A stretch of 64,000 bases of DNA from an uncultured Methylomirabilota bacterium (lineage in GTDB: Bacteria; Methylomirabilota; Methylomirabilia; Methylomirabilales; 2-02-FULL-66-22): positions 256,001 through 320,000 of the forward strand of contig CAWJSJ010000001.1 in NCBI GenBank assembly GCA_963845565.1. Reading direction: 5' to 3'. A model generated the notes under the pieces. The model was not told where the DNA came from and did no database searches. It worked only from the letters and a program-made list of their open reading frames with translations. Each line of letters begins with the position of its first letter. Position 1 is the first letter of the stretch. A program made the translations under genes and the position numbers. Below, in pieces: positions 920 through 43,805 of the stretch.

Positions 920-1068
920 TCCGAGATCATGGAGTCGGTCCGAAATCTCGGGCGGTTCCCGCCGCTCACGCCGCAGCGAGGTCGCCGCGGCATCCTGGCC
1001 AACCCGGCGTTTTCACCGGGGGAACCCGCGGCGAGACGCACGAAGGGGGATGTGGACCTCCGTTTGCA
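920..1068 (+). promoter_or_regulatory. sigma54 module 1 (tandem-palindrome UAS plus -24/-12 box) upstream of DUF3309
   Basis: TCCGAGATCATGGA-GTCGG-TCCGAAATCTCGGG 920-952; TGGACCTCCGTTTGCA 1053-1068 (GG-N10-GC). Confidence 0.8.
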
Positions 1069-1143
1069 CCTACCATAGTCAAGCAGCGCGTCAAGGGCAA
1101 GCACACTGGGAATCCTGATTCCCACGCGGGAAGGAGACGTTCG

Positions 1144-1323
1144 ATGCTACTGCTCATTCTTCTACTGGTGGTGTTGTTCGCCGGCGGCGGCGGCTATTAC
1201 GGGTATTCCCGCTGGGGGACCGGCGGGGGCCTGGGGATCCTCGGGACGGTCCTGCTCGTGGCGGTGCTCGTGTACCTGCTCGGTGGGATGAATTTCCCTG
1301 GCAGGATGCATTTCCCGGGGTAG
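1144..1323 (+). CDS. DUF3309-like small membrane protein (59 aa, not in ORF track)
   Basis: MLLLILLLVVLFAGGGGYYGYSRWGTGGGLGILGTVLLVAVLVYLLGG...; AGGAG RBS; paralog at 12401-12547. Confidence 0.8.
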   Translation: MLLLILLLVVLFAGGGGYYGYSRWGTGGGLGILGTVLLVAVLVYLLGGMNFPGRMHFPG

Positions 1324-1534
1324 CATCGAGCGGACGCCACGAGAAAGGCGAATGCAGCAGCGCGCGACTAGGCCCGGCGAGTCCGTGAGCGATAGGCAGG
1401 CGAGGCCTCACTCGATCTGGGCGGCGTGCAGACGACGCCTAATCACTTTGTCACACGGCGGGAGCACGCGGCACCTTCCGCGGATCGAGCGTGCGAACAT
1501 GCGTTACCCGCTCGGAAACGAAGGAGGACGACCC

Positions 1535-1891
1535 ATGACGACGAAGATCGTTGCGTTCTTACTGTTCACCGTGTTGTGCGTGCTGGGGAGCGGCACCGGG
1601 GCCGCGGCGGCTTCTCCCCCCGCGCCCCAGGTGCCCAACACCGGGGCCAATACTGGCAATCTTGATCTGACGAGCCCCGGCGGGTTCTTCGCGCCGCCCG
1701 CGCCCGCCGGGTCGCCGACCACGCCGCCCGCAGCCTCGGGCCCGGCCCTGTCCAGTCCCTTCCCGCCGCCGTATCGCTCGCAGATCCCCAACGTCCCCGC
1801 GACGCGCCCGTTGGGGCCTGGCACCGGCGGGACCCCGAATACCCCGGGGACGGTTGGTGGAACCGGGACTGCCCTGCCTCCAGCGCCCTAG
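1535..1891 (+). CDS. Secreted Pro/Gly/Thr-rich hypothetical protein
   Basis: AGGAGG RBS; signal peptide MTTKIVAFLLFTVLCVLG...AAA; low-complexity mature part. Confidence 0.65.
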   Translation: MTTKIVAFLLFTVLCVLGSGTGAAAASPPAPQVPNTGANTGNLDLTSPGGFFAPPAPAGSPTTPPAASGPALSSPFPPPYRSQIPNVPATRPLGPGTGGTPNTPGTVGGTGTALPPAP

Positions 1892-2185
1892 GCGAAAGAA
1901 TGGGCGGCATCGATTCACCCCATTCTAGCTCCGCCCACCCGGGACGCCATTAATTGAGCAAGAACACGGCGTCTACTGGGGGGCGCCCAGGAGCCTCTTG
2001 TCGAATCCTGCCTCGGCGGAGCCCTGTCTCGACGGCTATTCCGCACCCGGCGCACGCGACACAATCTTCTGCGCGCTTCTCTCTTGACATCCTCACGATA
2101 CTGCCTAAATTCTATAGTAGGAGGTCTATCCATGTATCCCCCCTGGAGACGGCAAGGGCCGGGTGGGATGGCGTACCGGGAAACG

Positions 2186-2237
2186 TCGAGGCCCCCGTCG
2201 GTTCGCTCATGACCGGTGGGGGCATTTGTGTTTTTTC
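2186..2237 (+). terminator. Probable intrinsic terminator
   Basis: GCCCCCGTCGGT...ACCGGTGGGGGC stem followed by ATTTGTGTTTTTT. Confidence 0.5.
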
Positions 2238-2358
2238 GAGGACGTTTCACCCAGCATGAAGGGCGTGCTCAATGCCCCGTTCCTCCACCCAAGGGAAAGG
2301 CGGGAATCGTGGGCGCAGGGCGGGAAGAACGTCGGCACGTCGTGAGGAGGTGGCCCAC

Positions 2359-2430
2359 ATGGCGAAGGCGCCTGGAAAGCCGCAACCTGGGAATCCAGAA
2401 CCGGGGAAGCCACAGCCGGGTCCAAGATAA
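2359..2430 (+). CDS. 23-aa micro-ORF MAKAPGKPQPGNPEPGKPQPGPR
   Basis: Strong GAGGAGGT RBS upstream; tandem PG(K/N)P(Q/E) repeats. Confidence 0.45.
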   Translation: MAKAPGKPQPGNPEPGKPQPGPR

Positions 2431-2526
2431 GGGAGGCCGGCCACGAGCCGAGGAGGCGCTGCGCCCCGGGCGAGGGGATCAGCTTGGTGAGGATGCCCAG
2501 TCTGATCCTGGCGAGGGGGAACACAC

Positions 2527-2928
2527 ATGGCGCACGACCACGGGAAGGAATATCAGATCAGCATTGTCCACGAGGACGGTACGGAGGAACTGAGCGGGTG
2601 GATGCAGCGCGAAGAGCAGGTGGCGCCCGCGATGGCGGCGATCCACCGGCCCCACGGTACTGCGTACTGGCTTCGGGAACGCAACGTACTCTGTCCCGAC
2701 TGCCGAGAAAGGGACCAGGGAATCTCGGAATATCCCCTGACGGCGATCCCGTCGCCTCGATACCGCCCCCACGACTCCGGGTATCTGCTGGTAGCGGGGT
2801 GGCGGAACCGGTCCGAGGTGCCCCCGCCGCGGCTGACACTTCTCGCGCAAGAAACGACGACGTTGGTGTCGATGGGATTAGAGATCGTCGCCGCCTCGCA
2901 GCGAGTTATATCCAAGCGAGCGGCGTGA
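2527..2928 (+). CDS. Hypothetical protein with a CxxC motif
   Basis: RBS GAGGGGG; globular-looking 133 aa containing LCPDC. Confidence 0.55.
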   Translation: MAHDHGKEYQISIVHEDGTEELSGWMQREEQVAPAMAAIHRPHGTAYWLRERNVLCPDCRERDQGISEYPLTAIPSPRYRPHDSGYLLVAGWRNRSEVPPPRLTLLAQETTTLVSMGLEIVAASQRVISKRAA

Positions 2929-2970
2929 GCGTGGGGGGGTCCCGCCGCCCAAGCTGAGTGTCACCTCCCG

Positions 2971-3120
2971 TCCGACCGATCGGAGGTTCTCCGAAATTTC
3001 GGGCGATTCGTGGCGTGGCTTCCCTCGCCTGTCGCCCGCCGCATCCCCGTCAACCATTTATTTCCAAACGGTGAACGCCGTGTCGCGCCCACGGCCTGGC
3101 GGGCTGGATCCGGTGTTGCA
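2971..3120 (+). promoter_or_regulatory. sigma54 module 2 upstream of OmpA lipoprotein
   Basis: TCCGACCGATCGGA-GGTTC-TCCGAAATTTCGGG 2971-3003; IHF-like CAACCATTTATTT at 3051; TGGATCCGGTGTTGCA 3105-3120. Confidence 0.85.
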
Positions 3121-3415
3121 TGTTGTGGAGTAGGCTCACAATTTCACCTGCTGCCGGGCCCCGCGGCTGCGCGGACACCCAAGCGCGAGATTGGGCGCGC
3201 CGAACCCAGAACCGCGGCTGCGGGGAACAAAAAGGGGGCGCGGGGTCGTGGACTTGGTCACCCGACGCGACTCCGCGTCCCTCCGGAGGATTCCCGTGGA
3301 GCTCACAGTTGCTCTGAACGAATCTGGTTCTGACCAACGCCGTGCCCGCAATGAGAGTTTGCCCGGAACGAGAGGTCAGGACAAGGTGCGCCTGACTGTG
3401 CGAAAGGAGGAGAGC

Positions 3416-4123
3416 ATGCGACGTGTTGTCTGGATGACGGTTGTGATTCCAGGGTTGGTGCTGCTGGTCTCTGGGTGCGCGACACGAGACTGGGTACGGG
3501 GATACGTGGCGCCGAAAGAGCTCGATATCGACCAGCGCATTGCGAAGGTCGAAGGGAAGGTCGGCGAGGAGACCGGGCGCATTGACCAGCGTATCACCGC
3601 GACAGAGGGACGGGTGACCGCGGGAACCCAGCGTATCGAGGGAATGAACGGCCGCATGAACACGCTCGAGACCTCCATTGGAGAGGCGGGAGAGGGGGCC
3701 AAGGTCGCTCGGGAGCGCGCGGACACCGCCGTGGCCAAAGCGGACGAGACCGATAGCCGGCTCACGCGTCTGTGGGACAGCCGCAACAATTGGAGCCTCG
3801 TGGAAACCATTGAGGTACCGTTCCGCTTTAACCGCTGGGACCTCAGCGATAAGTCCGAGACGGCTCTCGTGGGTTTGGTCCGCGAGCTGAAAACGAACAA
3901 TAAACTCGCCGTGGTCCTCGAGGGGTACACGGACCCGAGCGGGGACGCGGAGTACAACCTCCAGCTCAGTCAGCGCAGAGTCGAGACCGTGCGGCGGTTC
4001 CTCGTAAAGCAAGGGGTGGAGCTACCGCGGATCCATGCCGTCGGCCTGGGCCCGATCCTCGATCCCGCAACCCCCAAAGAACAGAAGCGCCGAGTGACGG
4101 TAAAGCTGACGCTCGCCGAATAG
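3416..4123 (+). CDS. OmpA-family lipoprotein with a coiled-coil N-terminal region
   Basis: Lipobox VSGC; C-terminal LEGYTD...YNLQLSQRR...RRV OmpA peptidoglycan-binding motif; AGGAGG RBS. Confidence 0.9.
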   Translation: MRRVVWMTVVIPGLVLLVSGCATRDWVRGYVAPKELDIDQRIAKVEGKVGEETGRIDQRITATEGRVTAGTQRIEGMNGRMNTLETSIGEAGEGAKVARERADTAVAKADETDSRLTRLWDSRNNWSLVETIEVPFRFNRWDLSDKSETALVGLVRELKTNNKLAVVLEGYTDPSGDAEYNLQLSQRRVETVRRFLVKQGVELPRIHAVGLGPILDPATPKEQKRRVTVKLTLAE

Positions 4124-5059: not shown

Positions 5060-5226
5060 CCTTTGCCGGTCACCCTCCATTGCCTGCTGTGGGGGGGCGG
5101 ATGATTTGCTCCGTTTCCTCCTGGCACGTCGTGAACGGGCACGCCAGGCCGACTGGCGCCGCCGCTTGGCGCCAATACGCCCACTCCCCTGCGAGTCCCA
5201 GCGCCCCCGCTCAGCGTCACCTCCCC

Positions 5227-5376
5227 TCCGACCCCTCGGAGGCGCTCCGAGATCTCGGGCGATTCCCGCTTACGCCTCGCTGGAGATTCCACCGCAGCAT
5301 CCGGTCCAACCACACGATTAATCAGGGCGGAGACCCCGTCAGCCTCAACGACCCGGGGGGTGGATCTGGTGTTGCA
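5227..5376 (+). promoter_or_regulatory. sigma54 module 3 upstream of micropeptide and BON gene
   Basis: TCCGACCCCTCGGA-GGCGC-TCCGAGATCTCGGG 5227-5259; TGGATCTGGTGTTGCA 5361-5376. Confidence 0.85.
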
Positions 5377-5531
5377 TATTCAGTTGAACGAGAGGTGCAC
5401 AGGACGGAGGGATGCGGGCGGAGCAGGCGTGGGGACGTGACACGTGCCCGGCTTTGGGTGCCCGGCCCGGCTGGAGGACCTGGGGAGCACCACTCGGCGG
5501 ATGGCCTCGCGCCATCCGGGAGGAGGTTCAC

Positions 5532-5606
5532 ATGTATTCGATCGTCTACATCGTGGGCGCGGTGGTCATCGTTATCGTGGTGTTGAAGATGGTCGGGCTC
5601 TACTAG
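5532..5606 (+). CDS. 24-aa single-TM micropeptide MYSIVYIVGAVVIVIVVLKMVGLY
   Basis: AGGAGG RBS; paralogs at 13207, 35360 and 44488. Confidence 0.75.
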   Translation: MYSIVYIVGAVVIVIVVLKMVGLY

Positions 5607-12547: not shown

Positions 12548-12620
12548 CCGCCGTCCCCTTTCCGCAGGGACCCCGGCGGCCCCTGGTGGCTGCCGGGTAT
12601 CCCCGCTGTCCTGGGAACGC

Positions 12621-12770
12621 TGCAAGGACAGGTCCACATCACTCGTCAAGCGCCTCGATGTGGTCTCCGCCCTGTGAAGCCGACAGGTTAGCCCGAGGGC
12701 GGCGGCGCGCTCACCACGCCTAGCTCGGCGCGCACCGTCCGAAATCTCGGATCGCCTCCACGATTTCGGA
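12621..12770 (-). promoter_or_regulatory. sigma54 module 4 (minus strand) upstream of DUF3309 paralog
   Basis: Minus strand TCCGAAATCGTGGA-GGCGA-TCCGAGATTTCGGA (12770-12738); TGGACCTGTCCTTGCA (12636-12621). Confidence 0.8.
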
Positions 12771-12971
12771 TGGCGCGGGGCCCGCGGCAGGGGACCCGTG
12801 CCTTGCACTGGCCGGTGAGCGCTTTGCCCACCGGGGACGGGTCCGTCGAATCGAGGGCGCGTCTGCACGCGGGCCCGGCCGGTGCCCCGCCTCCGACATG
12901 CGGCCCCACCTGCGTGTCCCGACTCATGGAAACTCGGGTGCCCGCCGTCGGCCGACCTGGTGCCTTCCCCA

Positions 12972-13119
12972 TCCGACAGGTCGGAGGCGCTCCGAGATCT
13001 CGGGCGGATCGCGGCAGACCCGTCGCCAAGAGGCCGACCCGCCGCGCCGCCAACTCCTTGTTTCCAAGGCCCGGTGCGCTCGGCAAGCTCCCGGCGCGCT
13101 GGCTGGATCTGGCTTTGCA
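12972..13119 (+). promoter_or_regulatory. sigma54 module 5 upstream of micropeptide and BON gene
   Basis: TCCGACAGGTCGGA-GGCGC-TCCGAGATCTCGGG 12972-13004; IHF-like CAACTCCTTGTTT 13051; TGGATCTGGCTTTGCA 13104-13119. Confidence 0.85.
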
Positions 13120-13206
13120 TACTCGAATGAGGACCGGGGGCCGATCGGTCCACGGCACCATCCACACGCAATGGGCTGTGAGTCAGCCTGAGAGGAGGGG
13201 GATCGC

Positions 13207-15403: not shown

Positions 15404-15444
15404 CGTGTGCGCCGCGCGGGGCGCAGCGGAATGGCACCTCACCC

Positions 15445-15592
15445 TCCGAGATGTCGGAGTCGCTCCGAGATCTTGGACGTTTCCTTCCGGTACCTGCGGG
15501 GGGAGTCCAGCGAAACATCCCCTCAACCACCCGATTCCATGGATGGAGATCGCGTCGTCCTGCTCGCCGAGAGGAATGGATCTGGATTTGCA
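15445..15592 (+). promoter_or_regulatory. sigma54 module 6 upstream of YtxH-like and DUF6600 genes
   Basis: TCCGAGATGTCGGA-GTCGC-TCCGAGATCTTGGA 15445-15477; TGGATCTGGATTTGCA 15577-15592. Confidence 0.85.
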
Positions 15593-15753
15593 GATTCACC
15601 AGGGAAGCGGCGAGGGCGAAGCGCCGGCGTGACACATCATTCTCCAGTGTTGTGGGGCTTTCAGACGGCGGACGGCGCCTCGCGCGAGACGCCGCTCTGA
15701 CCGAGTGCCTGCGGGGCCCGGCCGCCAGGCGCGCAGCACAGAAGGGAAACGCG

Positions 15754-24239: not shown

Positions 24240-24605
24240 ACCATGACGTCGGCGTCCCGGTGAAGATGCGCACGGGTGACGCGCTAGCGGTCGCGAGGGA
24301 AATCGCGCGCGGAGTCGGCTTGCCCAACATCCGTCGCGTGGCGGACCTGAAGGCCGCGAGCGCGCAGGCGGGCAACGTGGTCCACGATCATCATTCCATG
24401 TGCGGACGTGCTCGACACGAACTCTCTCACGACATTTTGGCCCTTGACGCCAACCCGGCTGCCGACGCATAGTGGGATTGTGCGTGGTGCCGAATCTCCG
24501 ACCACGAAGGATACGGTCTCCCACTGGTCACCACCGTTGAAGGGATGGGCGGGGGAGACACGTGAGCGCTCCGGAGACGATCCCTGGTGCGTGAGGAGGG
24601 ACGCA

Positions 24606-27278
24606 ATGCGCAAACGCACACCCCGCCCGACCCCGAAGCCGGCCGCGGTCCGCGCCGGCCGGCGAGCCGCCCCGCCCCGGCCCACACCCGTCCCCCGCTC
24701 TGGGGACGGCCGCTTCCCCATTGTCGGCATCGGGGCCTCCGCCGGGGGCCTGGAAGCCCTCGAGGAGTTTTTCCGGCACGTGCCGGCCGGCAGCGGCCTG
24801 GCCTTTGTGGTCGTCCAGCATCTCGACCCGACCCACAAGGGCCTCTTGCCCGAACTGCTCCAACGCGCGACCGGCATGCCGGTCCATCAGATCAAGGATC
24901 GGACCCGGGTCCAGCCGGACTGCGTGTACGTGATCCCGCCCAACACGGACCTGTCGATCCTCCGCGGCGTGCTGCACCTCCTCACGCCGGCCGCCCCGCG
25001 CGGCCTCCGTCTCCCGATCGACACCTTTTTCCGAGCGCTGGCGGCGGACTGGCACGAGCGCAGCGTCGCCGTCGTCCTGTCGGGCATGGGGACGGACGGC
25101 ACGCTGGGCGTCCGGGCCATCAAGGAGCAGGGGGGGCTCGTCCTGGTGCAGGAGCCGGCCTCGGCCAAGTTCGCCAGCATGCCCCAGAGCGTGCTCGCCG
25201 CGGGACTGGCGGACGTCGCGGCCCCGGCCGCCGCGTTGCCCCAGAAGCTCCTCGCCTGCCTCCAGCACGCCCCCCACGGGCCCTCGACCGAGCTCCCGCT
25301 GGGCGACAAGACCGAGAGCGGTTTGGAGAAGGCCCTGATCCTGCTCCGGGCGCACACCGGCCACGATTTTTCGCAGTATAAGAAGACGACCGTGTACCGG
25401 CGGATCGAACGGCGCATGAGCCTCCACCAGCTTGACACGATCGCGGCCTACGTCCGGTACCTGCAGGCGAATCCCCAGGAGATCGACTTGCTCTTCAAGG
25501 AGCTCTTGATCGGGGTGACCAGCTTCTTCCGCGACCCGGCGGCCTGGGAACAGCTCCAGACGCGCGGCCTCCCGGGGCTCCTGGCCGCCCGGCCGCCCGG
25601 CCAGCCCCTGCGGGCCTGGGTGCCCGGCTGCGCGACGGGGGAGGAGGCATACTCTCTGGCCATTGCCGTGACGGAGGTGCTGGCCGAGCGGACACCTCAG
25701 GCGCGATGGCCGCTGCAGATCTTTGGCACCGACCTGGACCGGGACGCCATCGACCGGGCCCGTCAGGGCGTCTTTCCGGACAACATCGCCGCCGACGTGT
25801 CCTCGGAGCGCCTGCAGCGCTTCTTCCGCAAGGAGCAGAGCGGGTATCGGGTCGCGCCCGCCATCCGGGGCCTGGTGACCTTTGCCCTGCAGAACGTCCT
25901 CGGACACCCGCCCTTCACCAAGCTGGATCTCCTGAGCTGCCGGAACCTGCTCATCTACCTGGACCCGGAGCTCCAAAAGAAACTCCTTCCTTTGTTCCAC
26001 TACAGCCTGAACCCCGGCGGCCTGCTGTTCCTGGGCAGCGCGGAGACCATCGGCGGCTTCAGCGACTTGTTTACCCCGCTGGCGGCCAAGGCTCGCCTCT
26101 ACCAGCGGAACGCCTCCGCCGGGCGGGCGGAGCTGATCGAGCTTCCCGCCGCGCCGCGGGGTGTCCGGCCCGCGGCGGCGGCCGCGCCCCGGGTGTTGCT
26201 TGCGCCCGTCAGCCTCCAGGCGCTGGCGGACCAGGTACTCCTCCAGCGCTATGCCCCGGCGGCGGTGCTGGTCGCCGCCCAGGGGGACATCCTGTACATC
26301 AGCGGGCGAACGGGCAAGTACCTCGAGCCGGCGAGCGGCAAGGTCAACTGGAACGTGCTGGCCATGGCCCGCGAGGGGCTGCGAGCCGCGCTGCCCGATG
26401 CCATCCGGCAGGCTCTCCGCAAGTCGGAGGAGGTCACGCTCCGACACCTCACGGTGCGGACCGAGGGGGGGGTGCAGGTCGTGGACGTCACCGTCCAGGC
26501 GCTCGCGGAGCCGGAGGCGTTGCGCGGGACGGTGTTGATCGCCTTCCGGGACGTGGCCGCGGTTCCTGCCCCGGCTCCCCCGCGGCGCGCCGCGCGCGGG
26601 GGCGCGCCGCGCGCCCACGTCGCCGCGCTCGACCGGGAGCTGCAACAGGCCCGCGAAGATGCCCGGGGCACCCAGGAGGAGATGCAGACGGCGCAAGAAG
26701 AGCTCAAGGCGACCAACGAGGAGCTCCAGGCGACCAACGAGGAGCTGCAATCGACCAACGAGGAGCTCCAGTCGACCAACGAGGAGCTGACCACCTCCAA
26801 GGAAGAGATGCAATCCTTGAACGAGGAGCTCCAGACCGTCAACGCCGAGCTCCAGGCCAAGGTGGAGGAGTTGTCGCGGGCGAGCGCCGACATGAAGAAC
26901 CTGCTCAACAGCACGGACATCGCCACCCTCTTCCTGGACGGCGCGCTCTGCGTCCGGCGCTTCACCGCCCAGGCGACCACGCTCATCAAGCTGATTCCCG
27001 GCGACCTGGGGCGCCCGGTCACCGACCTCGCGTCCGCGCTGCTGTATCCTGATCTCCCCGCGGACGCGCAGGAGGTCCTGCGGACCCTGACGCCCATCGA
27101 GAAGGAAATCGCGACCCGCGACGGGCGCTGGTTCACGGGGCGCCTGATGCCCTACCGCACGCTCGAGGACAAGATCGACGGCGTCGTGATCACCTTCAGG
27201 GAGGTCACGGCCGCCAAGACGCTGGAGGCGGAGCTTCGGCGGACGTTGGCCGCCCGGCCGGAGGCACCCCGTGCGTGA
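24606..27278 (+). CDS. CheB/CheR fusion with EELQSTNEE coiled coil and PAS domain
   Basis: CheB GIGASAGG, QHL, LSGMGTDG; CheR VTSFFRD, WVPGCATGEEAYS, SCRNLLIY; repeated NEELQST; C-terminal PAS. Confidence 0.93.
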   Translation: MRKRTPRPTPKPAAVRAGRRAAPPRPTPVPRSGDGRFPIVGIGASAGGLEALEEFFRHVPAGSGLAFVVVQHLDPTHKGLLPELLQRATGMPVHQIKDRTRVQPDCVYVIPPNTDLSILRGVLHLLTPAAPRGLRLPIDTFFRALAADWHERSVAVVLSGMGTDGTLGVRAIKEQGGLVLVQEPASAKFASMPQSVLAAGLADVAAPAAALPQKLLACLQHAPHGPSTELPLGDKTESGLEKALILLRAHTGHDFSQYKKTTVYRRIERRMSLHQLDTIAAYVRYLQANPQEIDLLFKELLIGVTSFFRDPAAWEQLQTRGLPGLLAARPPGQPLRAWVPGCATGEEAYSLAIAVTEVLAERTPQARWPLQIFGTDLDRDAIDRARQGVFPDNIAADVSSERLQRFFRKEQSGYRVAPAIRGLVTFALQNVLGHPPFTKLDLLSCRNLLIYLDPELQKKLLPLFHYSLNPGGLLFLGSAETIGGFSDLFTPLAAKARLYQRNASAGRAELIELPAAPRGVRPAAAAAPRVLLAPVSLQALADQVLLQRYAPAAVLVAAQGDILYISGRTGKYLEPASGKVNWNVLAMAREGLRAALPDAIRQALRKSEEVTLRHLTVRTEGGVQVVDVTVQALAEPEALRGTVLIAFRDVAAVPAPAPPRRAARGGAPRAHVAALDRELQQAREDARGTQEEMQTAQEELKATNEELQATNEELQSTNEELQSTNEELTTSKEEMQSLNEELQTVNAELQAKVEELSRASADMKNLLNSTDIATLFLDGALCVRRFTAQATTLIKLIPGDLGRPVTDLASALLYPDLPADAQEVLRTLTPIEKEIATRDGRWFTGRLMPYRTLEDKIDGVVITFREVTAAKTLEAELRRTLAARPEAPRA

Positions 27279-28932
27279 CGAGTCGAAGCTGCCGCCCGAT
27301 GCCCCCGCGCTGCGCCGCCGCGCGGAAGCACGCCTGCGCGCCACGGCGACGCGTCCCCCCGCGCCCCGCACCGCCGCCGACACCCAGCGGCTCCTCCACG
27401 AGCTCCAGGTTCACCAGGTGGAGCTGGAGCTGCAGAACGAGGAACTCCGCCAGGCGCGCGAGGCCGGCGAGGCGGCGCTGGCCCGGTACACCGCGCTCTA
27501 CGACGAGGCCCCGGTAGCGTATCTGACGCTCGACCGGGCCGGGGGCATCCGCGGCCTGAACCTCACCGGCGCCACCCTCCTGGGGGAAGCGCGCGCCGCG
27601 GTGGTGGGGACCCCGTTCCAGCGATTCCTCCCGGCGGACGCCCACCCCGTCGTCGAGGCCGTCCTCAAGGCCGCGGGCCCCGACCCGGACCCGCAGGCCG
27701 TCTGCGAGGTGCCTCTGCGGCCGACCGCGGGCCCCCTGCGGTTCGTGCGCCTCCAGGCCACCGCGGAAGCAGCCGGCGACGAGTGCCGCGTCGTGCTCAT
27801 CGACCTCACGGACCGCCGGCAACTGGAGGAGGCGCGGCTGCTCCGGAGCAAGCTGGAAGCCACGGGGGTCTTGGCGGCCGGGATCGCCCACGACTTCAAC
27901 AACCTGTTGATGGCCATCCTGGTGAACCTCGAGCTGCTCCGGGAGCCCACGGACGACGCCACGGCGTACCTCGCCGCCGCCATCCAAGCCGTGCTGGAGG
28001 CCCGTGGCCTGACGCAGCAGTTTCTCACCTTCGCCAAGGGCGGGCTGCCGGTCCGGCGGGTGCTCGCCCTGGCTGGCGTGGTCCGGGACGCCGCCACGCT
28101 CGTCCTGCGGGGGGCGCCGGTCGAGTGCGACCTCACACTGCCGACGGATCTCTGGCTGGTGGACGGGGATCCGACGCAGCTCGGCCAGGTCGTCCGGAAC
28201 CTCGTCCTGAACGCACGCGAGGCGATGCCCAAAGGCGGGCGAGTCACCATCCGGGCGGAGAACGTCGCAGAACCCACGGCGGGTGTGCGCGTGACCATCG
28301 CCGACCACGGGCCCGGGATCCCGGCGGACCTCCTGCCCAAGATTTTCGATCCGTACTTCTCGACCAAGCAACGCGGGGCCCAGCGGGGTACGGGCCTGGG
28401 CCTGACCGTTTGCCGGGCTATCGTAGAGCAGCACGGAGGCACCCTCACGGTGGACTCCACGGTGGGGGTTGGGACCACTGTCCAGATCGTGTTGCCCGCG
28501 GCCGTGGCGCTCGCGCACGCCGCGCTCCGCCCGGCGCCCCTCGCCCTGCCCGGGACCGGCCGGCTCCTGGTCATGGACGATGAGCCGTCGGTGCGGACCA
28601 CGCTCGGCGCGCTCCTCCAACGGCTGGGCTACACGGTCGAGCTGGCCGAGCGCGGCGAGGAGGCCGTGGCGCTGTATCAAGTGGCCCAGGCGCAGGGCGA
28701 CGGCTTCGCCGCGGTGATCCTCGACTTGACGGTGCGAGGGGGGATGGGGGGCGTGGCGACTCTCGAGGCACTGCGTCGACTCGATCCCGCCGTTACGGCG
28801 CTTGCGGTGAGCGGTTACGCCGACGATCCGGTCATCGTGGATCCCGTGCGGCACGGGTTCAAGGGGGCCCTCGCCAAACCCCACGGGATCGCCGCGCTGC
28901 GCGACCTCCTCGCCCAAGCGCTGGGGCGCTGA
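27271..28932 (+). CDS. Hybrid sensor histidine kinase (coiled coil-PAS-HisKA-HATPase-REC)
   Basis: GIAHDFNNLL, NLVLNA, DHGPGI, FDPYFSTK, GTGLGL; REC domain MDD...LDL...KP. Confidence 0.93.
   Translation: MRDESKLPPDAPALRRRAEARLRATATRPPAPRTAADTQRLLHELQVHQVELELQNEELRQAREAGEAALARYTALYDEAPVAYLTLDRAGGIRGLNLTGATLLGEARAAVVGTPFQRFLPADAHPVVEAVLKAAGPDPDPQAVCEVPLRPTAGPLRFVRLQATAEAAGDECRVVLIDLTDRRQLEEARLLRSKLEATGVLAAGIAHDFNNLLMAILVNLELLREPTDDATAYLAAAIQAVLEARGLTQQFLTFAKGGLPVRRVLALAGVVRDAATLVLRGAPVECDLTLPTDLWLVDGDPTQLGQVVRNLVLNAREAMPKGGRVTIRAENVAEPTAGVRVTIADHGPGIPADLLPKIFDPYFSTKQRGAQRGTGLGLTVCRAIVEQHGGTLTVDSTVGVGTTVQIVLPAAVALAHAALRPAPLALPGTGRLLVMDDEPSVRTTLGALLQRLGYTVELAERGEEAVALYQVAQAQGDGFAAVILDLTVRGGMGGVATLEALRRLDPAVTALAVSGYADDPVIVDPVRHGFKGALAKPHGIAALRDLLAQALGR
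27291..27820 (+). repeat. 530-bp direct repeat, copy 1 (kinase input module)
   Basis: Near-identical to 32430-32959 (about 9-10 mismatches by eye). Confidence 0.92.
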
Positions 28933-28950
28933 ACAGGCCGGTGCCCGCTA

Positions 28951-29062
28951 CCGGAACGGATCAGGCGTTGCCGGTACGCGGTGACACCGCACCCATCCTG
29001 GCGGATGGGTACCCGGTCCGCTCATCACCACGTACGCTCCCGCTGCAGGCGGGAATGGCTGC
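28951..29062 (-). repeat. Dispersed repeat, copy D (body only, inverted)
   Basis: Reverse complement matches 5657-5767 and 53397-53495. Confidence 0.8.
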
Positions 29063-29082
29063 CCGTTTCGGCGATTCTGCAC

Positions 29083-29111
29083 TTGACACCAAGTGCCCCT
29101 CGGGCAATAAT
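29083..29111 (+). promoter_or_regulatory. sigma70-type promoter upstream of kaiC
   Basis: TTGACA-N17-AATAAT. Confidence 0.55.
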
Positions 29112-29183
29112 TCTTCAATCAGCCCCACGAGTCCCGCGAACAGGCTGTCATCGCGCCTGACTGTGCCCCAAGGAGAACCGCAC

Positions 29184-30887
29184 ATGGCGAGCCACCGGAA
29201 GCCGTCCGAGCGCGACGCGGTCTTGCCGAAGTGTCCCACCGGGATTTACGGGCTGGACGAGATCACGGAGGGCGGCCTCCCCAGGGGCCGCCCGACCCTC
29301 GTCTGCGGCACGGCCGGGTCTGGCAAGACGCTGCTCGCCATGGAGTTCCTGGTCCGGGGTATCACCGAGTTCCGCGAGCCCGGCGTGTTCATGACCTTCG
29401 AGGAGACGGCCGAGGAGCTGTCCGCCAACGTCGCCTCCTTGGGCTTCCACGTCCCTCGCTTGCTCCGGACCGGGCAGCTCGCGATCGACCATGTGCGCGT
29501 TGAGCGGAGCGAGATCGACGAGACCGGCGAGTATGACCTCGAGGGGCTCTTCATTCGCCTGGGCGCCGCCATCGACCGCACCGGGGCCAAGCGCGTCGTC
29601 CTGGACACCATCGAGGCCCTGTTCGCCGGGCTGTCCAACGAGGCGATCCTGCGGGCGGAGCTGCGCCGGCTGTTCCGCTGGCTCAAGGATAAACAGGTCA
29701 CCGCGATCATCACCGGCGAATTGGGAGACGGACACCTGACCCGCCACGGGCTGGAGGAGTACGTCAGCGACTGCGTCATCCTCTTGGATCATCGGGTGCA
29801 AAACCAGGTGGCCACCCGACGCCTCCGGATCGTGAAGTACCGGGGGTCCAAACACGGGACCAACGAGTACCCCGCCCTGATCGACGAGCACGGCCTGTCA
29901 GTCCTCCCTATCAGCTCCCTGGGCCTCACCTACCCGGTCAGTACGGAGCGGGTCTCCACCGGCATCCCCCGCCTGGATGCCATGCTGGGCGGCAAGGGCT
30001 ACTACCGGGGGAGCAGTATCCTCGTGTCCGGCACCGCGGGTACCGGCAAGACGAGCCTCGCCACGGCTTTCCTCGACCGGGTCTGCCGCCAGGGCGGCCC
30101 GGCTCTCTACTGCTCCTTCGAGGAGTCCCCGGACCAGATCATCCGCAATATGCGCTCCATCGGGTATGACCTGGACAAATGGCGGAAGGCCGGCCGGCTC
30201 CGGTTCCACTCCGTCCGGCCCTCACTCTACGGCCTGGAGATGCATCTCGCCACCCTCCACAAGCTGGTCGAGGAGTTCAAGCCCCGCGCGGTGGTCCTGG
30301 ACCCGATCACCAACATGCTGAGCATCGGCGACTCCCCCGAGGTCAAGGCGATGCTGACGCGGCTCATCGACTTCCTGAAGAACCGGGGGATCACCAGCGT
30401 CTTCACCAGCCTCACCGCGGGCGGTCACGACCTGGACCAGAGCGAGGTCGGCATCTCCTCCCTGATGGACTCCTGGCTGCTCGTCCGGATGCTGGAAACG
30501 AACGGTGAGCGGAACCGGCTTCTCTACGTGTTGAAGTCCCGGGGCATGGCCCACAGTAACCAGATGCGGGAGTTCCTCCTCACCGACGCGGGAATCCAGC
30601 TCCGGGATGTCTATGTCGGTCCCGGGGCGGTGTTCACCGGCTCGTCCCGCCTGGCGCAGGAGGCCCGGGACAAGGCCGACGGCCTGGCCGAGCAGGTGGC
30701 GGCCGCACGCCGCGAGCGGGAGCTGGTCCAGGAGCAGACGAGCCTGAAAGCCCAGGCCGCGGCGCTCCTGACGCGGGTGGGTCACATCAAGGAGGAGCTG
30801 CAGACGGCCCAGCAGCAGGCCCGGCGCCGGGCGGGGGCCACCCGCACCGACCAGGAAACCTTAGCGCGCGCCCGCAAGGCGGACTGA
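29184..30887 (+). CDS. kaiC: Circadian clock protein KaiC (KaiC2-like)
   Basis: Two RecA-like domains (GTAGSGKT and GTAGTGKT, FEE); KYRG and KSRG; ISSLMD at the phosphosite position; AGGAG RBS. Confidence 0.95.
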   Translation: MASHRKPSERDAVLPKCPTGIYGLDEITEGGLPRGRPTLVCGTAGSGKTLLAMEFLVRGITEFREPGVFMTFEETAEELSANVASLGFHVPRLLRTGQLAIDHVRVERSEIDETGEYDLEGLFIRLGAAIDRTGAKRVVLDTIEALFAGLSNEAILRAELRRLFRWLKDKQVTAIITGELGDGHLTRHGLEEYVSDCVILLDHRVQNQVATRRLRIVKYRGSKHGTNEYPALIDEHGLSVLPISSLGLTYPVSTERVSTGIPRLDAMLGGKGYYRGSSILVSGTAGTGKTSLATAFLDRVCRQGGPALYCSFEESPDQIIRNMRSIGYDLDKWRKAGRLRFHSVRPSLYGLEMHLATLHKLVEEFKPRAVVLDPITNMLSIGDSPEVKAMLTRLIDFLKNRGITSVFTSLTAGGHDLDQSEVGISSLMDSWLLVRMLETNGERNRLLYVLKSRGMAHSNQMREFLLTDAGIQLRDVYVGPGAVFTGSSRLAQEARDKADGLAEQVAAARRERELVQEQTSLKAQAAALLTRVGHIKEELQTAQQQARRRAGATRTDQETLARARKAD

Positions 30888-31266: not shown

Positions 31267-31602
31267 ATGCGAAAGAAAGAGGATGCCACGGCCGCCTTGG
31301 CCCGCGCGGCCACGGCGCAGGCGCAGGCCCATTATCTGCTCAAGCTCTACGTCGCCGGCGTGACGCCGCGGTCTTCCAGCGCGATCCGGTCACTCACGGA
31401 GCTTTGCGAGACGCACCTCAAGGGGCGATACACGTTGGAGATCGTCGATCTCTACCGACAACCGACGCTGGCCGCAGGCGATCAGATTGTCGCCGCGCCT
31501 ACCCTGATCAAGAAGCTTCCGCTCCCGCTCCGGCGCCTGATCGGGGACATGGCCAACGAGGACAAGATCCTCGTCGGCCTGGATCTGAGGCCCAAGCCAT
31601 GA
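31267..31602 (+). CDS. kaiB: Second KaiB-domain protein
   Basis: YLLKLYVAGVTPRS...IVAAPTLIKKLPLPLRRLIGD. Confidence 0.9.
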   Translation: MRKKEDATAALARAATAQAQAHYLLKLYVAGVTPRSSSAIRSLTELCETHLKGRYTLEIVDLYRQPTLAAGDQIVAAPTLIKKLPLPLRRLIGDMANEDKILVGLDLRPKP

Positions 31603-32183
31603 CCGAAAAGCGCAGCACCCCGAACCGCCTCGCCGCCCTCCAGACGGAGAACCAGGAGTTGCGCCACCGGCTCGAGGAAGCCGAGGAGGCGCTCCGGGCC
31701 ATCCGGGAAGGCGAGGTGGATGCCGTCGTGGTGACCGGAAGTCGGGGCACACAGATCTTCTCCCTGAGCGGCGTCGAAAGTGTCTACCGCCTGATCATAG
31801 AGACGATGCAGGAGGCGACCCTGACAGTGACCCCCGATGGCCTGATCCTGTGGTGCAACCCGCAGTTTGCGAAAATCTTCCAGAACCCGGTCGGCCAGAT
31901 CCTCGGGAAGCCTTTACAAATGTTTGTCATTCCGGAACACATTCCCAGGATCGACGCCCTGCTGGAACAGATCCGCGACGCCCCAGTGCGCGAGCGCGTC
32001 GTCTTTCAGGCCGCGGACGGCACGCCCGTCCCGGCCTACGTGGATGCGCACCGGCTCTTACAACCGGAGGGGACGATTCTCTGCTTGGTGGTGAGCGATC
32101 TCTCCGAGTTGGAATCGGCCACCGACGTCGTCCGACAGCTCCGACAGGAGATAGCCGAGCGCGAGCGATCCGGACACGCCTAG
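31599..32183 (+). CDS. Kai-associated coiled-coil plus PAS protein, probably a truncated sensor kinase
   Basis: LEEAEEALRAIREGEVDAVVV followed by PAS; ends in ...GHA* then RESEESF. Confidence 0.75.
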   Translation: MTEKRSTPNRLAALQTENQELRHRLEEAEEALRAIREGEVDAVVVTGSRGTQIFSLSGVESVYRLIIETMQEATLTVTPDGLILWCNPQFAKIFQNPVGQILGKPLQMFVIPEHIPRIDALLEQIRDAPVRERVVFQAADGTPVPAYVDAHRLLQPEGTILCLVVSDLSELESATDVVRQLRQEIAERERSGHA

Positions 32184-34479: not shown

Positions 34480-34492
34480 GCGGTCCCGCCCC

Positions 34493-34643
34493 TCCGACCG
34501 ATCGGAGCCCGCTCCGAGATCTCGTGCGGGTTTCGGCGGGGCGTCGCTCGCCGGTTGTTTTCCGCATCTCCTTCAACCCCTTGTTTCGACACGGCGCAGG
34601 CCGCGTCGCGGCCCAGGCCGGGCGCGCTGGATCAGGTTTTGCG
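34493..34643 (+). promoter_or_regulatory. sigma54 module 7, immediately after the EBP stop codon
   Basis: TCCGACCGATCGGA-GCCCGC-TCCGAGATCTCGTG 34493-34526; IHF-like CAACCCCTTGTTT 34574; TGGATCAGGTTTTGCG 34628-34643. Confidence 0.8.
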
Positions 34644-35053
34644 GACAAAGAGGCGGGCAGGCAATTCTACCTGATCCAAGGACATTCCCCCCAAGGGATC
34701 CACGGCGACAGTCCGAGGCAAGCCCACAGGACAACGGCGGGCCGGCCCGCGCCCGGCGATTTCGGTCACAGCCGCTGACGCCACGGGTGGCGGAGGCGCG
34801 AAGGAGAGACGAGATGGGGGACGGAGCGATGGTGGGACGGCGAGTGCTCATTGTTGTGGATGCGATTCTGGCGAAACCGCGTCGACTGGCCGACCTGGAG
34901 GCGGTAATTGGCGGGTTGGCGCGGAGCCGTGCCGTGCGTCGTCCGTCCGGTGTCGCTGGGCGGCGAGACGACGATCCGGGGGCGATCGGCTAGGTCCCGT
35001 TCTGGTCTTTCGCTCAAGCAGGCCTCCGGTGCCTCCGCTGCGCCCCAGCCACC

Positions 35054-35203
35054 TCCGACCCCTCGGAGCCGCTCCGAGATCTCGGGCGGTTTCCGCCCAC
35101 GCCGCCGCGGAGCTTTCCCGGCAGCCGCTCCGCTAACCCTCCGGTTCGTCAACGCAAAAACCGCGTCAGGCCCCGCGACCGGTGGGATGGATCTGTTGTT
35201 GCA
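35054..35203 (+). promoter_or_regulatory. sigma54 module 8 upstream of micropeptide and BON-LTXXQ gene
   Basis: TCCGACCCCTCGGA-GCCGC-TCCGAGATCTCGGG 35054-35086; TGGATCTGTTGTTGCA 35188-35203. Confidence 0.85.
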
Positions 35204-35359
35204 TATCCAGGTGAACGAGAGGTGCACAGGATAAAGGGATACGGGCGGAGCGGGCGTGGGGAAGCGACACGCGCCCGGCTTTGGGTGCCCGGCCCGGCTG
35301 GAGGCCCTGGGGAGCACCACTCGGCGGATGGCGTCGCGCCATCGGGGAGGAAGGGCAAC

Positions 35360-41733: not shown

Positions 41734-42803
41734 TGCGGAAGCTTCACGTGCAGCTCGGCAGGCCACGCCGCGCGGGAGTCGAGCCGGACATGTGCCATGC
41801 CGGGTAACCCGGTCTTGACCTTGGTGATGTTCTGCTTGAGGAGCTCGGGAGCGATCTGCGCCTTGACCCGGAACATCAGCTTCTCCCGCTCGCTGGCAGT
41901 CTCGACGGTCTTGGGGGTGAACTGGGCGACGTCGGCAACGAAGGAGACCTGCGCCGGGATGACGTACTGCGGCGCAGCATCGAGCACCAGCCGCGCCTCC
42001 GAACCGATGGCGACTCGACCCGCCGCAGCCGTGGGCAGGAAAAAGGTCATGTACACATCGCTCAGGTCGAGCAGGCTCAGCACCCTGCCGCCGGGCGCGA
42101 GCACCTCGCCGCGCTGGGCGACGCGATACTGCACGCGCCCATCGCGCGGCGCTTTGAGCACGCTGTCGTCGAGGTCCGCCTGGATGCGCTGGATGGTTGC
42201 CCGCGCCGCCTCGACGTCCGACTGCACCCCGATCGCCTGCGACCTGGCCGTGGCGATGGCCGCGTCCATTGCCGCGACCTGAGACTCCGCCGCAAGCAGG
42301 CCCGCCTCTGTGCCGAGGAAACCGGTGCGATCGTCGTCGAGCTGCTGCCTGGAAATCGCATTATCGGCGAACAGCGACTCTGCACGCGCCCGACGCCCTC
42401 TCGCCGCATCCACTTCCGACTTGCGCTGGATCACCACGGCCCGCGCGGCCGCCTTCTCGCTCTGTCGCTGGACCACCTGGCTGTGGGTGGTCTCGATGGC
42501 GTTTTCCGCCTGGCGCAACCGGGCCTGTGCCTCTCGCTGCTGGGCCTGCAATACGGCGGTGTCCATCTCCGCCAGCGGTTGCCCGGCGGTGACGAGATCG
42601 CCTTCGCTCACCAGAATGTCCTTGACCCGTCCCGCGGTCTTGGCGGCGATGTCGATCTCCACGGCTTCGATGCGGCCGTTGCCGGAGGCAAAGCCGCCGG
42701 GAAGCCCTTTGGGCCTCAAGGAGTGCCAGGCAAAGACGGCGGCTCCGATGCCAACCACCGCAATCAGGATCGCCGACAGCCAGTGCTTTCGTAATGTCAA
42801 CAT
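41730..42803 (-). CDS. yhiI: HlyD-family membrane fusion protein (YhiI-like)
   Basis: [29 protein letters not shown]. Confidence 0.9.
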
Positions 42804-42994
42804 TGCGACGTGCACGCTTGTACCCTCGCGGTGGCTGCGGTGTGCTTGGAGTCGAACCCCACGTCGGCCGGGACCTTCTGCGTCACGATCTTGATGACGG
42901 TACGCCATCCCGGCATGGCCCGCGTTCCGCTCCGCCATCACGGCGGTGCACGCATTCTCACGCCGTGATCGCTCGGTTCACCGGGGCACACGTC

Positions 42995-43288
42995 TCAGCG
43001 TCGAAGTGCTCCCACCGGGGAGACGCCTGCGGCGTCGCGATCTTTGCTGGGCTCATAGTCGGGTTTATGGCGTCGTTCTTGTGCTTGGAATTGGAGCAGG
43101 ATAGGCCCCCGTGGCTCCGTCCCCAGGCCCACCCGTCCTGCCGACCGTGCCCGATCCCACACCCGCTCGATCAGGAGGGCCAATCCCACGACGATCAGAC
43201 CCCAGAGCAACGTGATGACGAACCACTCGCCGATCCCCAACCCATAGCCGAAACCTCCCCACTCCATCGTTCCGCTTCCCGGCCGCAT
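42995..43288 (-). CDS. Small membrane protein, first gene downstream of sigma54 module 9
   Basis: GGAGGT RBS; WGGFGYGLG followed by a TM helix. Confidence 0.5.
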   Translation of the reverse strand: MRPGSGTMEWGGFGYGLGIGEWFVITLLWGLIVVGLALLIERVWDRARSAGRVGLGTEPRGPILLQFQAQERRHKPDYEPSKDRDAAGVSPVGALRR

Positions 43289-43380
43289 CGTGTGGACCTC
43301 CTTCCCATCAACGCGGTCGACATCCGCTACACACCGGCCCACGCCCTACCGCCCGGCATACTCCGTTCCCGCACACAATG

Positions 43381-43530
43381 TGCAAGGCCGGATCCAGCCA
43401 ACGCGGCGACCGGCACGCTGCGAGAACCGCCCATTGGAATCAAGCAGTTATGGGCGCTGAGGCCGAAGAGGCTCGGGCGCGAAACCTGCGGGAACGCTCC
43501 GAGATTTCGGAGACGCTCCGACCGATCGGA
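43381..43530 (-). promoter_or_regulatory. sigma54 module 9 (minus strand) facing yhiI-rbbA-yhhJ
   Basis: Minus strand TCCGATCGGTCGGA-GCGTC-TCCGAAATCTCGGA; perfect IHF consensus AATCAAGCAGTTA 43438-43450; TGGATCCGGCCTTGCA 43396-43381. Confidence 0.88.
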
Positions 43531-43655
43531 GGGGGAGAAACAGGGGGGCGCGGCGCGCGTGGTGTGCGGCGGGCCGCGAGAAAAGCGGATGTGAGGCAGA
43601 GCACGTCGGCGACGCTGCGCGTTCCATTTCCCGCCTCTCGCCGGTTATTCGGTCC

Positions 43656-43805
43656 TCCATGTATCTCCGAACGTCCTCCGAGATGTCGGAGGTGTCCGGC
43701 CGGTTCCGCCGCGGAACCGCCGGGCCGTGTGCGACCCAAGTCTCTGATTCGAGGGGTGCCGAGTTCGTCTGGGAAGCGGAAGAGCGTGGTGGCCTTGCGC
43801 TTGCA
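43656..43805 (+). promoter_or_regulatory. sigma54 module 10 upstream of the DksA/TraR gene
   Basis: TCCGAGATGTCGGA 43677-43690 (first palindrome degenerate); CAAGTCTCTGATT 43737; TGGCCTTGCGCTTGCA 43790-43805. Confidence 0.75.

Follow-up and report, generated by a model that had tools for sequence, protein, structure and literature searches.

Why does one stretch of chromosome from an uncultured Methylomirabilota bacterium carry the same promoter-like module in front of gene after gene, and which regulator would read it? The stretch, here called the window, comprises 64,000 nucleotides (positions 256001-320000 of contig C1) of a 5.36-Mb genome with 66% GC in six contigs (G000; genus g1, family f1; C1, C2 and so on denote contigs, and G and L numbers the genomes and loci of relatives). 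Each module consists of two 14-bp dyads TCCGA-N4-TCGGA, a box resembling the binding site of integration host factor (IHF), and a GG-N10-GC (-24/-12) box. An earlier note on this DNA had read ten such modules as the upstream activator sequences (UAS), IHF sites and promoters of a sigma-54 regulon run by a local enhancer-binding protein (EBP). This proposal is supported by comparative evidence, namely the presence of rpoN, an intact EBP gene, the co-occurrence of module and activator in 7 of 40 relatives, and evolutionary footprints over the proposed elements. As argued below, the genome holds 25 modules, and these very probably form one sigma-54 regulon run by an activator encoded on the same genomic island.

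With respect to the number of modules, TCCGA-N4-TCGGA with at most one mismatch occurs 18 times in the window against 4.42 ± 2.28 expected, and 100 shuffles all stayed below 18. The 19 genome copies picked up by an anchored pattern were aligned, and the resulting profile returned 25 full-length modules from the entire genome (E ≤ 1.2e-13), the next matches (E ≥ 7.5e-4) being mostly the palindromes reversed and a few weak partial ones elsewhere. Twenty-three of the 25 lie within 123 kb (C1:207,986-330,979) and the remaining two on C2, and every copy is intergenic, upstream of a gene and oriented toward it. The genome-wide search called for in the earlier note also recovers the coupling of palindromes and box, since the GG-N10-GC box begins 99-101 nt past the proximal dyad in all 25 modules. 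For comparison, there are 708 TGG-N8-TTGC strings on both strands of the genome, and the chance that one starts in a given 3-nt window is 2e-4. The two dyad starts are separated by 19 bp in 22 modules and by 20 bp in three, and the dyad centres differ systematically, being GC-rich in the distal (CCCC, CCGA, CAGG) and AT-rich in the proximal dyad (GATC, AATC, TATA). The genome contains 26 exact dyads, 22 inside modules and four outside; a palindrome scattered without the box, as a repetitive extragenic palindromic (REP) element would be, is therefore not what is found. Together with the confinement of 23 of the 25 copies to 123 kb, this led us to reject a dispersed repeat of the REP type or of the miniature inverted-repeat transposable element (MITE) type.

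The modules of the window and the genes behind them are given below, genes having been predicted by a crude codon-bias caller, so that starts and small open reading frames (ORFs) are approximate, and annotated by Pfam and NCBIfam.

912..1089, + strand: module 1; dyads 920-933 and 939-952; box 1053-1067; predicted transcription start ~1079
1144-1323, + strand: target of module 1, DUF3309 gene (Pfam)
2962..3133, + strand: module 2; dyads 2971-2984 and 2990-3003; box 3105-3119
3386-4123, + strand: target of module 2, OmpA-domain gene
5218..5397, + strand: module 3; dyads 5227-5240 and 5246-5259; box 5361-5375
5532-5606, 5890-6477 and 6678-6881, + strand: targets of module 3, a 24-aa membrane micropeptide, a BON protein and a dodecin
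up to 10987: possible further targets of module 3, FecR/OmpA/CHASE2-HD genes
12600..12778, - strand: module 4, divergent partner of module 5; dyads 12757-12770 and 12738-12751; box 12622-12636
12401-12547, - strand: target of module 4, DUF3309-like 48-aa gene
12964..13139, + strand: module 5; dyads 12972-12985 and 12991-13004; box 13104-13118
13207-13281, 13426-14013 and 14375-15358, + strand: targets of module 5, micropeptide, BON protein and a 327-aa protein
15438..15612, + strand: module 6; dyads 15445-15458 and 15464-15477; box 15577-15591
15754-16017 and 16058-17755, + strand: targets of module 6, a cluster-c4 87-aa protein (no Pfam match; YtxH-like by eye) and a DUF6600 protein
34485..34663, + strand: module 7; dyads 34493-34506 and 34513-34526 (20-bp spacing); box 34628-34642 (TTGCG)
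35048..35224, + strand: module 8; dyads 35054-35067 and 35073-35086; box 35188-35202
35360-35434 and 35435-36599, + strand: targets of module 8, micropeptide and BON + BON-LTXXQ ORFs, followed by a 113-aa Pro-rich protein and a PEP-CTERM protein
43361..43538, - strand: module 9; dyads 43517-43530 and 43498-43511; box 43382-43396; perfect IHF consensus
41730-42815, 39463-41733 and 37823-38944, - strand: targets of module 9, HlyD, a fused ABC ATPase/permease and an ABC-2 permease, besides a 97-aa gene
43661..43824, + strand: module 10; proximal dyad 43677-43690, distal dyad degenerate; box 43790-43804
43968-44435, 44717-46654 and 46980-47750, + strand: targets of module 10, DksA/TraR, a class-A penicillin-binding protein (PBP) and a triple-BON protein

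All ten sites of the earlier note were found where it had placed them, with distal and proximal dyads, and the starts of the boxes (1053, 3105, 5361, 12636 on the minus strand, 13104, 15577, 34628, 35188, 43396 on the minus strand, and 43790) agree to the nucleotide; likewise, the downstream gene families it had named were borne out by Pfam. For the site at 43677, the first half of which it had called degenerate, the description has to be amended in that 43677 is itself a good proximal dyad and the distal one is degenerate (5/10 specified bases). A second module with a degenerate distal dyad (3/10 specified bases) lies beyond the window at C1:208175 on the minus strand.

That the boxes belong to the -24/-12 class is indicated by the GG and GC doublets, which are exactly 10 nt apart in 25 of 25 modules. 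The longer form TGG-N8-TTGC is matched by 23, the variants being ATGC (C1:245326, minus strand) and CGG (C2:1801344, minus strand). Whereas the textbook -24 half is TGGCAC, the modules mostly have TGGAYC instead (18 modules), and elsewhere in the genome there are only 10 TGGAYC-N5-TTGCR strings. Regarding the IHF-like box, YAANNNNTTGATW is the reverse complement of the IHF consensus WATCAANNNNTTR, and in 22 of the 23 modules scored the TGG follows the start of its best match by 53-55 nt. There were no mismatches in two of these modules, one in seven, two in six, three in seven and four in one, so that 15 of 23 have at most two mismatches, compared to 327 of 5000 random 80-nt windows (6.5%). 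The grading of the sites into strong and weak in the earlier note was about right. The genome encodes the corresponding sigma factor, with one Sigma54_DBD match (206 bits) in a 528-aa open frame (C1:500909-501391), and five HU/IHF-family genes. No RpoS or SigB model passed its cut-off in the genome, and a 301-aa open frame matching sigma-70-family models is present.

The candidate regulator is the last gene of a same-strand run (24408-34479) of sensory and kai genes:

24408..27278, + strand: CheB-CheR-PAS fusion; opens the sensory operon, of which the activator is the last gene
27271..28932, + strand: PAS-histidine kinase-receiver hybrid
28941..30887, + strand: KaiC (NCBIfam KaiC equivalog NF006799, 721 bits vs cut-off 408)
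30906-31247 and 31267-31602, + strand: two KaiB genes (Pfam PF07689 passed; NCBIfam KaiB 98 vs cut-off 110)
31599..32183, + strand: stand-alone PAS protein, 194 aa
32347..34479, + strand: candidate regulator; PAS at residues 99-204, GAF at 227-367, AAA+ at 408-574, helix-turn-helix (HTH) domain HTH_8 at 661-704

EBPs of this group are recognised by an AAA+ domain with Walker A and B motifs and a GAFTGA-type loop, a Fis-type HTH and an N-terminal GAF domain, and the activator fits this description, the PAS hit being PAS_4. Its AAA+ sigma-54 interaction domain scores 232 bits against PF00158, and Walker A and the GAYTGA loop are intact in the translation; as for the latter, GAYTG-type variants such as GAYTDA and GAYTGS are listed as functional among the Desulfovibrio vulgaris EBPs covered by the relevant part of PMC4641369. 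While the genome has 31 full EBP genes, this is the only one on the island. Calling it FhlA-like, as had been done in the earlier note, is too loose, since the protein is an EBP of the GAF type but with one PAS and one GAF domain, and it scores below the NCBIfam cut-offs not only of FhlA (372 vs 830 bits) but also of NifA (374 vs 529) and NorR (356 vs 476). Its closest solved relatives are NifA, CapR and ZraR over the AAA+ domain, and NifA and ZraR over the HTH as well. At C1:250070-250234, a short way ahead of the module at C1:250368, there are 55 residues of a sigma-54 activator AAA+ domain, probably left over from a second activator copy of the short form.

Over residues 8-214 (32368-32988) the activator is 86% identical at the protein level to a stretch of the hybrid kinase (27232-27849) that begins slightly upstream of the called kinase start. 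The shared part comprises a coiled coil plus PAS and looks like a recent domain copy or gene conversion by which the sensory module would have come onto the activator. The order KaiC-KaiB-KaiB-PAS-activator is common to G000 and G005, and the combination of a double-domain KaiC with KaiB that defines KaiBC systems is present. By contrast, most orthologues, i.e., those of G009, G014 and three of the four G005 copies, have the short form GAF-AAA+-HTH, and no kai genes were found near them in the fetched flanks. One short activator copy in G005 sits downstream of a module, which would imply positive feedback. A hemerythrin gene lies upstream of the sensory operon.

The modules with their geometry and clustering, the genes behind them, the co-occurrence with the activator and the footprints are read directly from sequence; from these elements we infer binding, bending and co-activation, as well as the nature of the signal and the physiological role, along the following lines. 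Dimers of the activator would bind the two 14-bp dyads, centred at about -153 and -134 from the predicted start, and an IHF/HU-type protein would bend the DNA at the YAAC-N5-GATT box centred at about -72. The assembled ATPase ring would then remodel the sigma-54 holoenzyme parked on TGGAYC-N5-TTGCA, and release of the ATPase by the N-terminal sensory domains would make all operons fire together. The output may be a broad protection programme with spare DnaK, GroES/EL and FtsH, CspA, an RNase II-family enzyme and a desaturase, complemented by many small proteins of the envelope and membranes and by an ABC efflux set, together with DksA/TraR and a PBP.

The link between activator and module comes from comparisons with other genomes. 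Activator orthologues of at least 69% identity exist in seven of 40 relatives (G002, G005 with four, G006 with two, G008, G009, G010, and G014 with two) and none in the other 33. Module-type matches are found in the same seven genomes, and in each of them a module begins within ~40 nt of the activator stop, just as module 7 begins 6 nt past it here. Three further genomes (G003, G015, G033) have one or two pattern matches, without the other conserved boxes and at the rate of the reversed-pattern control. Amongst 251 genomes of the phylum, multi-copy module-type matches are limited to genus g1 (G078 unpublished). An unrelated conserved intergenic element, TCCGAGCGATCG...GTGTCAAGA...CTTGTCAATCTGCGCC, was noticed in six genomes of family f9, genus g16 (G097, G099, G107, G110, G111, G112).

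Outside the phylum, the stop codon of activator homologues with 48-59% identity, from metagenome-assembled genomes (MAGs) labelled Holophagae, Geobacteraceae and Acidobacteriota, is overlapped or closely followed by tandem 14-N5-14 dyads. In Holophagae and Geobacteraceae MAGs the distal dyad even lies within the last codons of the activator (L014:11900-11960; L009:6098-6150), the stop being inside the dyad spacer in the former and in or next to it in the latter. The half-sites of these MAGs read GACGA in Holophagae and Geobacteraceae and TCCAA in Acidobacteriota, and the putative recognition helix is TLESRLKK here, TLRSRMQR in Holophagae, TLYSRMQK in Geobacteraceae and TLEARMKR in Acidobacteriota, which, on the few sequences compared, is suggestive of covariation of helix and half-site. 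The distance to a TGGCAC-type box is 100 nt at both full sites of the Holophagae MAG, and the dyad-to-box gap is 73-98 nt in the Geobacteraceae MAGs and 85 nt in the Acidobacteriota MAG. There are two to three dyad sites per genome in the Holophagae and Geobacteraceae genomes searched, and in the Geobacteraceae and Acidobacteriota MAGs the product of the gene past the site resembles, by eye only, the ABM-domain protein whose gene follows the activator in the congeners. The strict TCCGA-type tandem pattern yielded no module in 80 loci around activator homologues of other genomes; it missed L008 because of a 1-nt shift and the distant loci because their half-sites differ, and these sites were identified by eye and by pattern.

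The earlier note had further suggested that the geometry is selected and not simply the product of duplication, and the alignment of orthologous promoters bears this out. Orthologous module-operon units in G000, G005, G009 and G014 include those of FtsH, GroES/EL, micropeptide-BON, GlsB-like/entericidin/DUF3309/c4 and DUF3309/c4/DUF6600. Conservation in these units covers the dyads, the IHF-like box, a short GGGCTGAGACC-like stretch and the -24/-12 box, with divergent spacers between them, which fits function rather than simple duplication. Module 7 is a special case in that its conserved leader is kept but the ABM-domain gene that follows the equivalent module in relatives is gone (34640-35050). 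No remnant of this gene was found by a search behind module 7, and the only homologue of that ABM cluster in G000 is encoded at C2:978975, behind one of the two off-island modules. The micropeptide, a hydrophobic protein of 24 aa with the pattern M-x-S-I-V-Y-x-V-G-A-V-V-I..., is present in four copies (5532-5606, 13207-13281, 35360-35434 and C1:250672), each between a module and a BON gene. Its pattern matches nowhere else in the genome, and orthologues exist in G005 and G009. Leaders of 77-146 nt precede the micropeptide-BON operons and resemble one another only among recent paralogues, and since no Rfam family matched at gathering score in 139.9 kb (the window plus L001-L004), they are not explained by a known RNA element.

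What would such a regulon do? One module operon encodes a Zn-ribbon protein, FtsH, CspA, a CBS protein, an RNase II-family enzyme and DedA, another CsbD, DnaK and a PRC-barrel protein, and a third four small proteins, GroES, GroEL and an ABM protein, with Usp further downstream. The lipid target is a fatty-acid desaturase, and the envelope targets are BON/OsmY-like (four behind the micropeptide), OmpA-like, entericidin, LTXXQ, DUF6600 and DUF1207 proteins. DUF3309 proteins follow six modules. In addition, there are weak GlsB/YmgE-like targets (PF04226, Transgly_assoc, 19.7 bits vs cut-off 25.3), cluster-c4 proteins that are YtxH-like by eye only, an HlyD-ABC-ABC2 exporter, the DksA/TraR, class-A PBP and triple-BON set, and DinB, and one module of G000 drives a CheR-PAS plus PAS-kinase-receiver pair. 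DnaK, GroES/EL and FtsH also have copies outside the island, with 89%, 86-98% and 63% identity, respectively (C2:2154784-2156685, C3:94924-96884, C2:913019-914971 and C2:534132-535946, including two further GroES/GroEL sets), and the island copies are therefore spare paralogues. Judged by these families, the role of the regulon would probably be broad protection under stress or in dormancy, a reading held with less assurance than the regulon itself.

Most of the modules sit, moreover, on one large insertion. The island is an insertion of 128,401 nt (C1:206,803-335,203; window -49197 to 79203) between fur and a gene for an M16 peptidase, and it holds 23 of the 25 modules plus the activator gene. 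Three congeners have empty sites, fur-feoAB abutting two M16 genes in G004 (67-nt gap), G012 and G020. In G005 and G006 the modules are on other contigs and the FeoB and M16 genes lie 5-7 kb apart, and in the single contig of G014 the modules occur in three separate places. The island was not found in 13 of 20 congeners. This variation in presence and location among species makes the set accessory and differently sited in each. The putative regulon and its regulator travel together as a 128-kb accessory island.

Marks of mobility were also looked for. The island's GC content of 65.6% is close to the 66.2-66.4% of the flanks, i.e., of native composition. No Pfam match to an integrase or transposase was obtained on the island, no tRNA or other Rfam element at gathering score on the 139.9 kb mentioned above, and no junction repeats, the direct and inverted repeats within ~1.7-1.9 kb of each end being short and local. 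The designation as an integrative element was therefore dropped in favour of a large presence/absence polymorphism. Positions 52346-62840 of the island contain no module; the genes there, for MlaE/ABC/MlaD/auxiliary lipoprotein, an ABC-2 exporter, an acyl-carrier/aminotransferase fusion and an AMP-ligase, have the look of a set for exporting lipids or envelope lipids. In two cases a P-type ATPase gene is broken into two ORFs (20453-21823/21976-23208; L004:7938-8798/9583-10344), and several genes of G009 and G014 are also fragmented in tblastn; such split genes are either pseudogenes or indel errors of long-read assembly.

The inference of the earlier note that the organism runs a general stress response through sigma-54 can on this basis be upheld in part. 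The sigma-54 regulon is well supported, but the general response is an overstatement, because with the island not found in 13 of 20 congeners and a sigma-70-like 301-aa frame in the genome it cannot be accepted as the general stress response of the lineage.

Amongst known systems, the arrangement is reminiscent of NifA-UAS-IHF-nifH (and of NtrC at glnAp2 and glnHp2), where a dyad UAS at about -130 to -150 is likewise followed by a -24/-12 promoter, with an IHF bend site between them to which the IHF-like box would correspond here. NifA, the best NCBIfam and PDB match of the activator, is also a GAF-AAA+-HTH protein. However, the NifA dyad is TGT-N10-ACA, in contrast to TCCGA-N4-TCGGA in two dyads at a fixed 19-bp start spacing here; the activator scores 374 against the NifA cut-off of 529, its targets are stress and envelope genes, and a single genome has 25 promoters. 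In its short form (residues ~205-710), the activator shares the GAF-AAA+-HTH architecture of NorR, which at norVW uses multiple adjacent dyads to nucleate its oligomer, yet NorR and FhlA, to whose cut-offs the activator does not rise, control one or two operons and not tens, and FhlA has two GAF domains instead of one GAF plus the extra PAS seen in G000.

CsbD, BON/OsmY, entericidin and Usp families are elsewhere under RpoS, SigB or EcfG regulation, and in these families, as well as in GlsB/YmgE (sub-threshold) and YtxH (by eye), the present gene set resembles the regulons of those factors; there, however, the sigmas are of the sigma-70 family, whereas here -24/-12 promoters and an ATP-dependent activator are employed. 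The transmissible locus of stress tolerance, or locus of heat resistance, of Proteobacteria is likewise an accessory island with extra protein-quality-control genes that varies among close relatives. The present island differs from it in being about 10 times larger, without recognisable mobility genes, and in having its own sigma-54 activator and uniform promoters.

PspF-psp and ZraSR-zraP provide precedents for envelope protection driven by sigma-54 and an EBP, and an LTXXQ (CpxP/ZraP-family) target is found here, too. Their regulons, unlike the present island-borne one with its chaperones, protease, and RNA and lipid functions, consist of one to few operons. That sigma-54 controls the bacterial exterior was proposed by Francke et al. 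2011 (PMC3162934). For D. vulgaris, EBP regulons comprise 1-12 operons in rows of Table 1 of PMC4641369, the one termed "general stress response" having two operons. According to the portion of PMC12316311 at hand, GroEL/GroES/DnaK/DnaJ/GrpE/IbpA are enriched among predicted sigma-54 targets in Planctomycetota and Bacteroidota, and sigma-54 control of chaperones would thus not be new in itself. As far as the available portions of the latter two papers extend, their reconstructions resemble ours in starting from EBP-specific upstream motifs (UAS) and -24/-12 promoters, but they make no mention of Methylomirabilota, the TCCGA motif or the island. In the full-text literature searched, no description was found of the motif, the island, a Kai-EBP link or a sigma-54 stress regulon in Methylomirabilota/"Rokubacteria".

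Several observations weigh against the interpretation of the 25 modules as one regulon under the adjacent activator. EBP paralogues on C5 are 57-58% identical to it over AAA+-HTH, in addition to a truncated frame at 71%. The count of seven out of 40 relatives with orthologues is a floor, since the search had a stricter first look by which weak homologues were possibly missed, and most of the relatives are incomplete MAGs. The IHF-like match is moderate, with three or four mismatches in eight of 23 modules, and HU and IHF are indistinguishable here. Several island genes look split (e.g., the P-type ATPase at 20453-23208), so that some targets may be pseudogenes or assembly errors, and the stress role is read solely from family names. 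As for transcripts, 20 public sequencing runs contained the sequence in part, and the RNA libraries X17 and X18 contained 10-13% of the sampled words. Their contigs on positions 1-20000 of the window, two of which cross module 2 (2713-3218 and 2713-3163) and end at unrelated places, are mostly 90-99% alike and hence derive from relatives, and as contigs they cannot show starts, strand or level.

If the sigma-54 regulon is real, the dyads could still be bound by another protein, either one of the remaining 30 EBPs or a repressor or activator from outside the EBP family, in which case the adjacent activator would be just one more target. The 31 full EBP genes with close paralogues speak for this, but in none of the 40 relatives do close orthologues of the activator occur without the module or the module without them, the dyads lie across or next to the activator stop in four phylum-level lineages, and the half-site seems to change with the recognition helix, all of which makes a different binder very unlikely. 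It is hardly credible that we are dealing with a promoter cassette of the MITE or REP kind that multiplied locally, selfishly or by passive duplication, without common control. Although the copies are clustered, and some modules were duplicated recently along with their genes (the leaders are even shared between the micropeptide-BON units at 5218 and 35048), all copies are intergenic and gene-facing, the off-cluster copies in 5.36 Mb amount to only two, on C2, and orthologous copies keep nothing but the dyads, the IHF-like box and the -24/-12 box while their spacers drift; nor does the island carry a transposase or integrase recognisable by Pfam.

Control of all 25 modules by the island activator thus being the preferred reading, its signal is a separate matter. 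The same circuit might answer one narrow cue, such as drying or osmotic upshift, cold, oxygen, NO or redox state via the GAF domain, or entry into a resting state, and this has an appreciable if lesser chance of being correct. NorR and other activators of the GAF type respond to one ligand each, the sensory operon has a hemerythrin gene upstream of it, and envelope and membrane-fluidity genes abound (BON, OmpA, entericidin, desaturase, CspA, DedA and a GT20 trehalose-phosphate-synthase-like island gene); DnaK, GroES/EL, FtsH, Usp, DinB and DksA, on the other hand, fit a broad response, and no ligand is identifiable from sequence. Alternatively, the regulon could be gated by time or metabolic state, KaiC-KaiB-KaiB acting via the PAS shared by activator and kinase in an anticipatory programme of the hourglass or day-night type. 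In favour of this scenario are the gene order kept in G000 and G005, a KaiC well above its equivalog cut-off, and an activator N-terminus so similar to that of the kinase as if both were wired to one input. Since most orthologues are of the short form with no kai genes in their fetched flanks, and adjacency by itself is weak evidence, such gating is unlikely, and a KaiBC input into the regulon has to be regarded as doubtful.

A more far-reaching view, in which the 128 kb constitute a movable "survival kit", i.e., an optional island for stress or dormancy with a sigma-54 master switch, timed by KaiC-KaiB in the long form and with a circuit expanded about tenfold, is quite unlikely as a whole. 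If it were true, stress protection would be anticipatory (hourglass or day-night) and not only reactive, and the ancestral circuit, as in Holophagae, Geobacteraceae and the Acidobacteriota MAGs, would have consisted of the activator and two to three sites including the ABM-domain gene. Even without it, the small circuit of two to three sites in other phyla compared with 25 promoters here points to an expansion, and a KaiBC link, if true, would tie a non-cyanobacterial Kai system to a defined transcriptional output.

General stress responses are, by textbook knowledge, controlled by alternative sigma factors of the sigma-70 family such as RpoS, SigB and EcfG, and it is a stress-type gene set that would here be wired to sigma-54 instead. 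Because sigma-54 has no basal activity and works only with an activator driven by ATP, the programme would be expected to stay firmly shut down until a trigger arrives. With one activator, one 33-bp site and 25 promoters, the regulon is nearly fully readable from sequence, which is rare for an uncultivated lineage, and as a whole, regulator included, it behaves like an accessory island, the empty site of which is precise in sister species. What is new is, as a well-supported computational reconstruction, a 128.4-kb accessory island that carries a large sigma-54/EBP regulon with a new site and appears to provide an uncultivated soil and sediment bacterium with a self-contained, optional stress programme switched by a single island activator.

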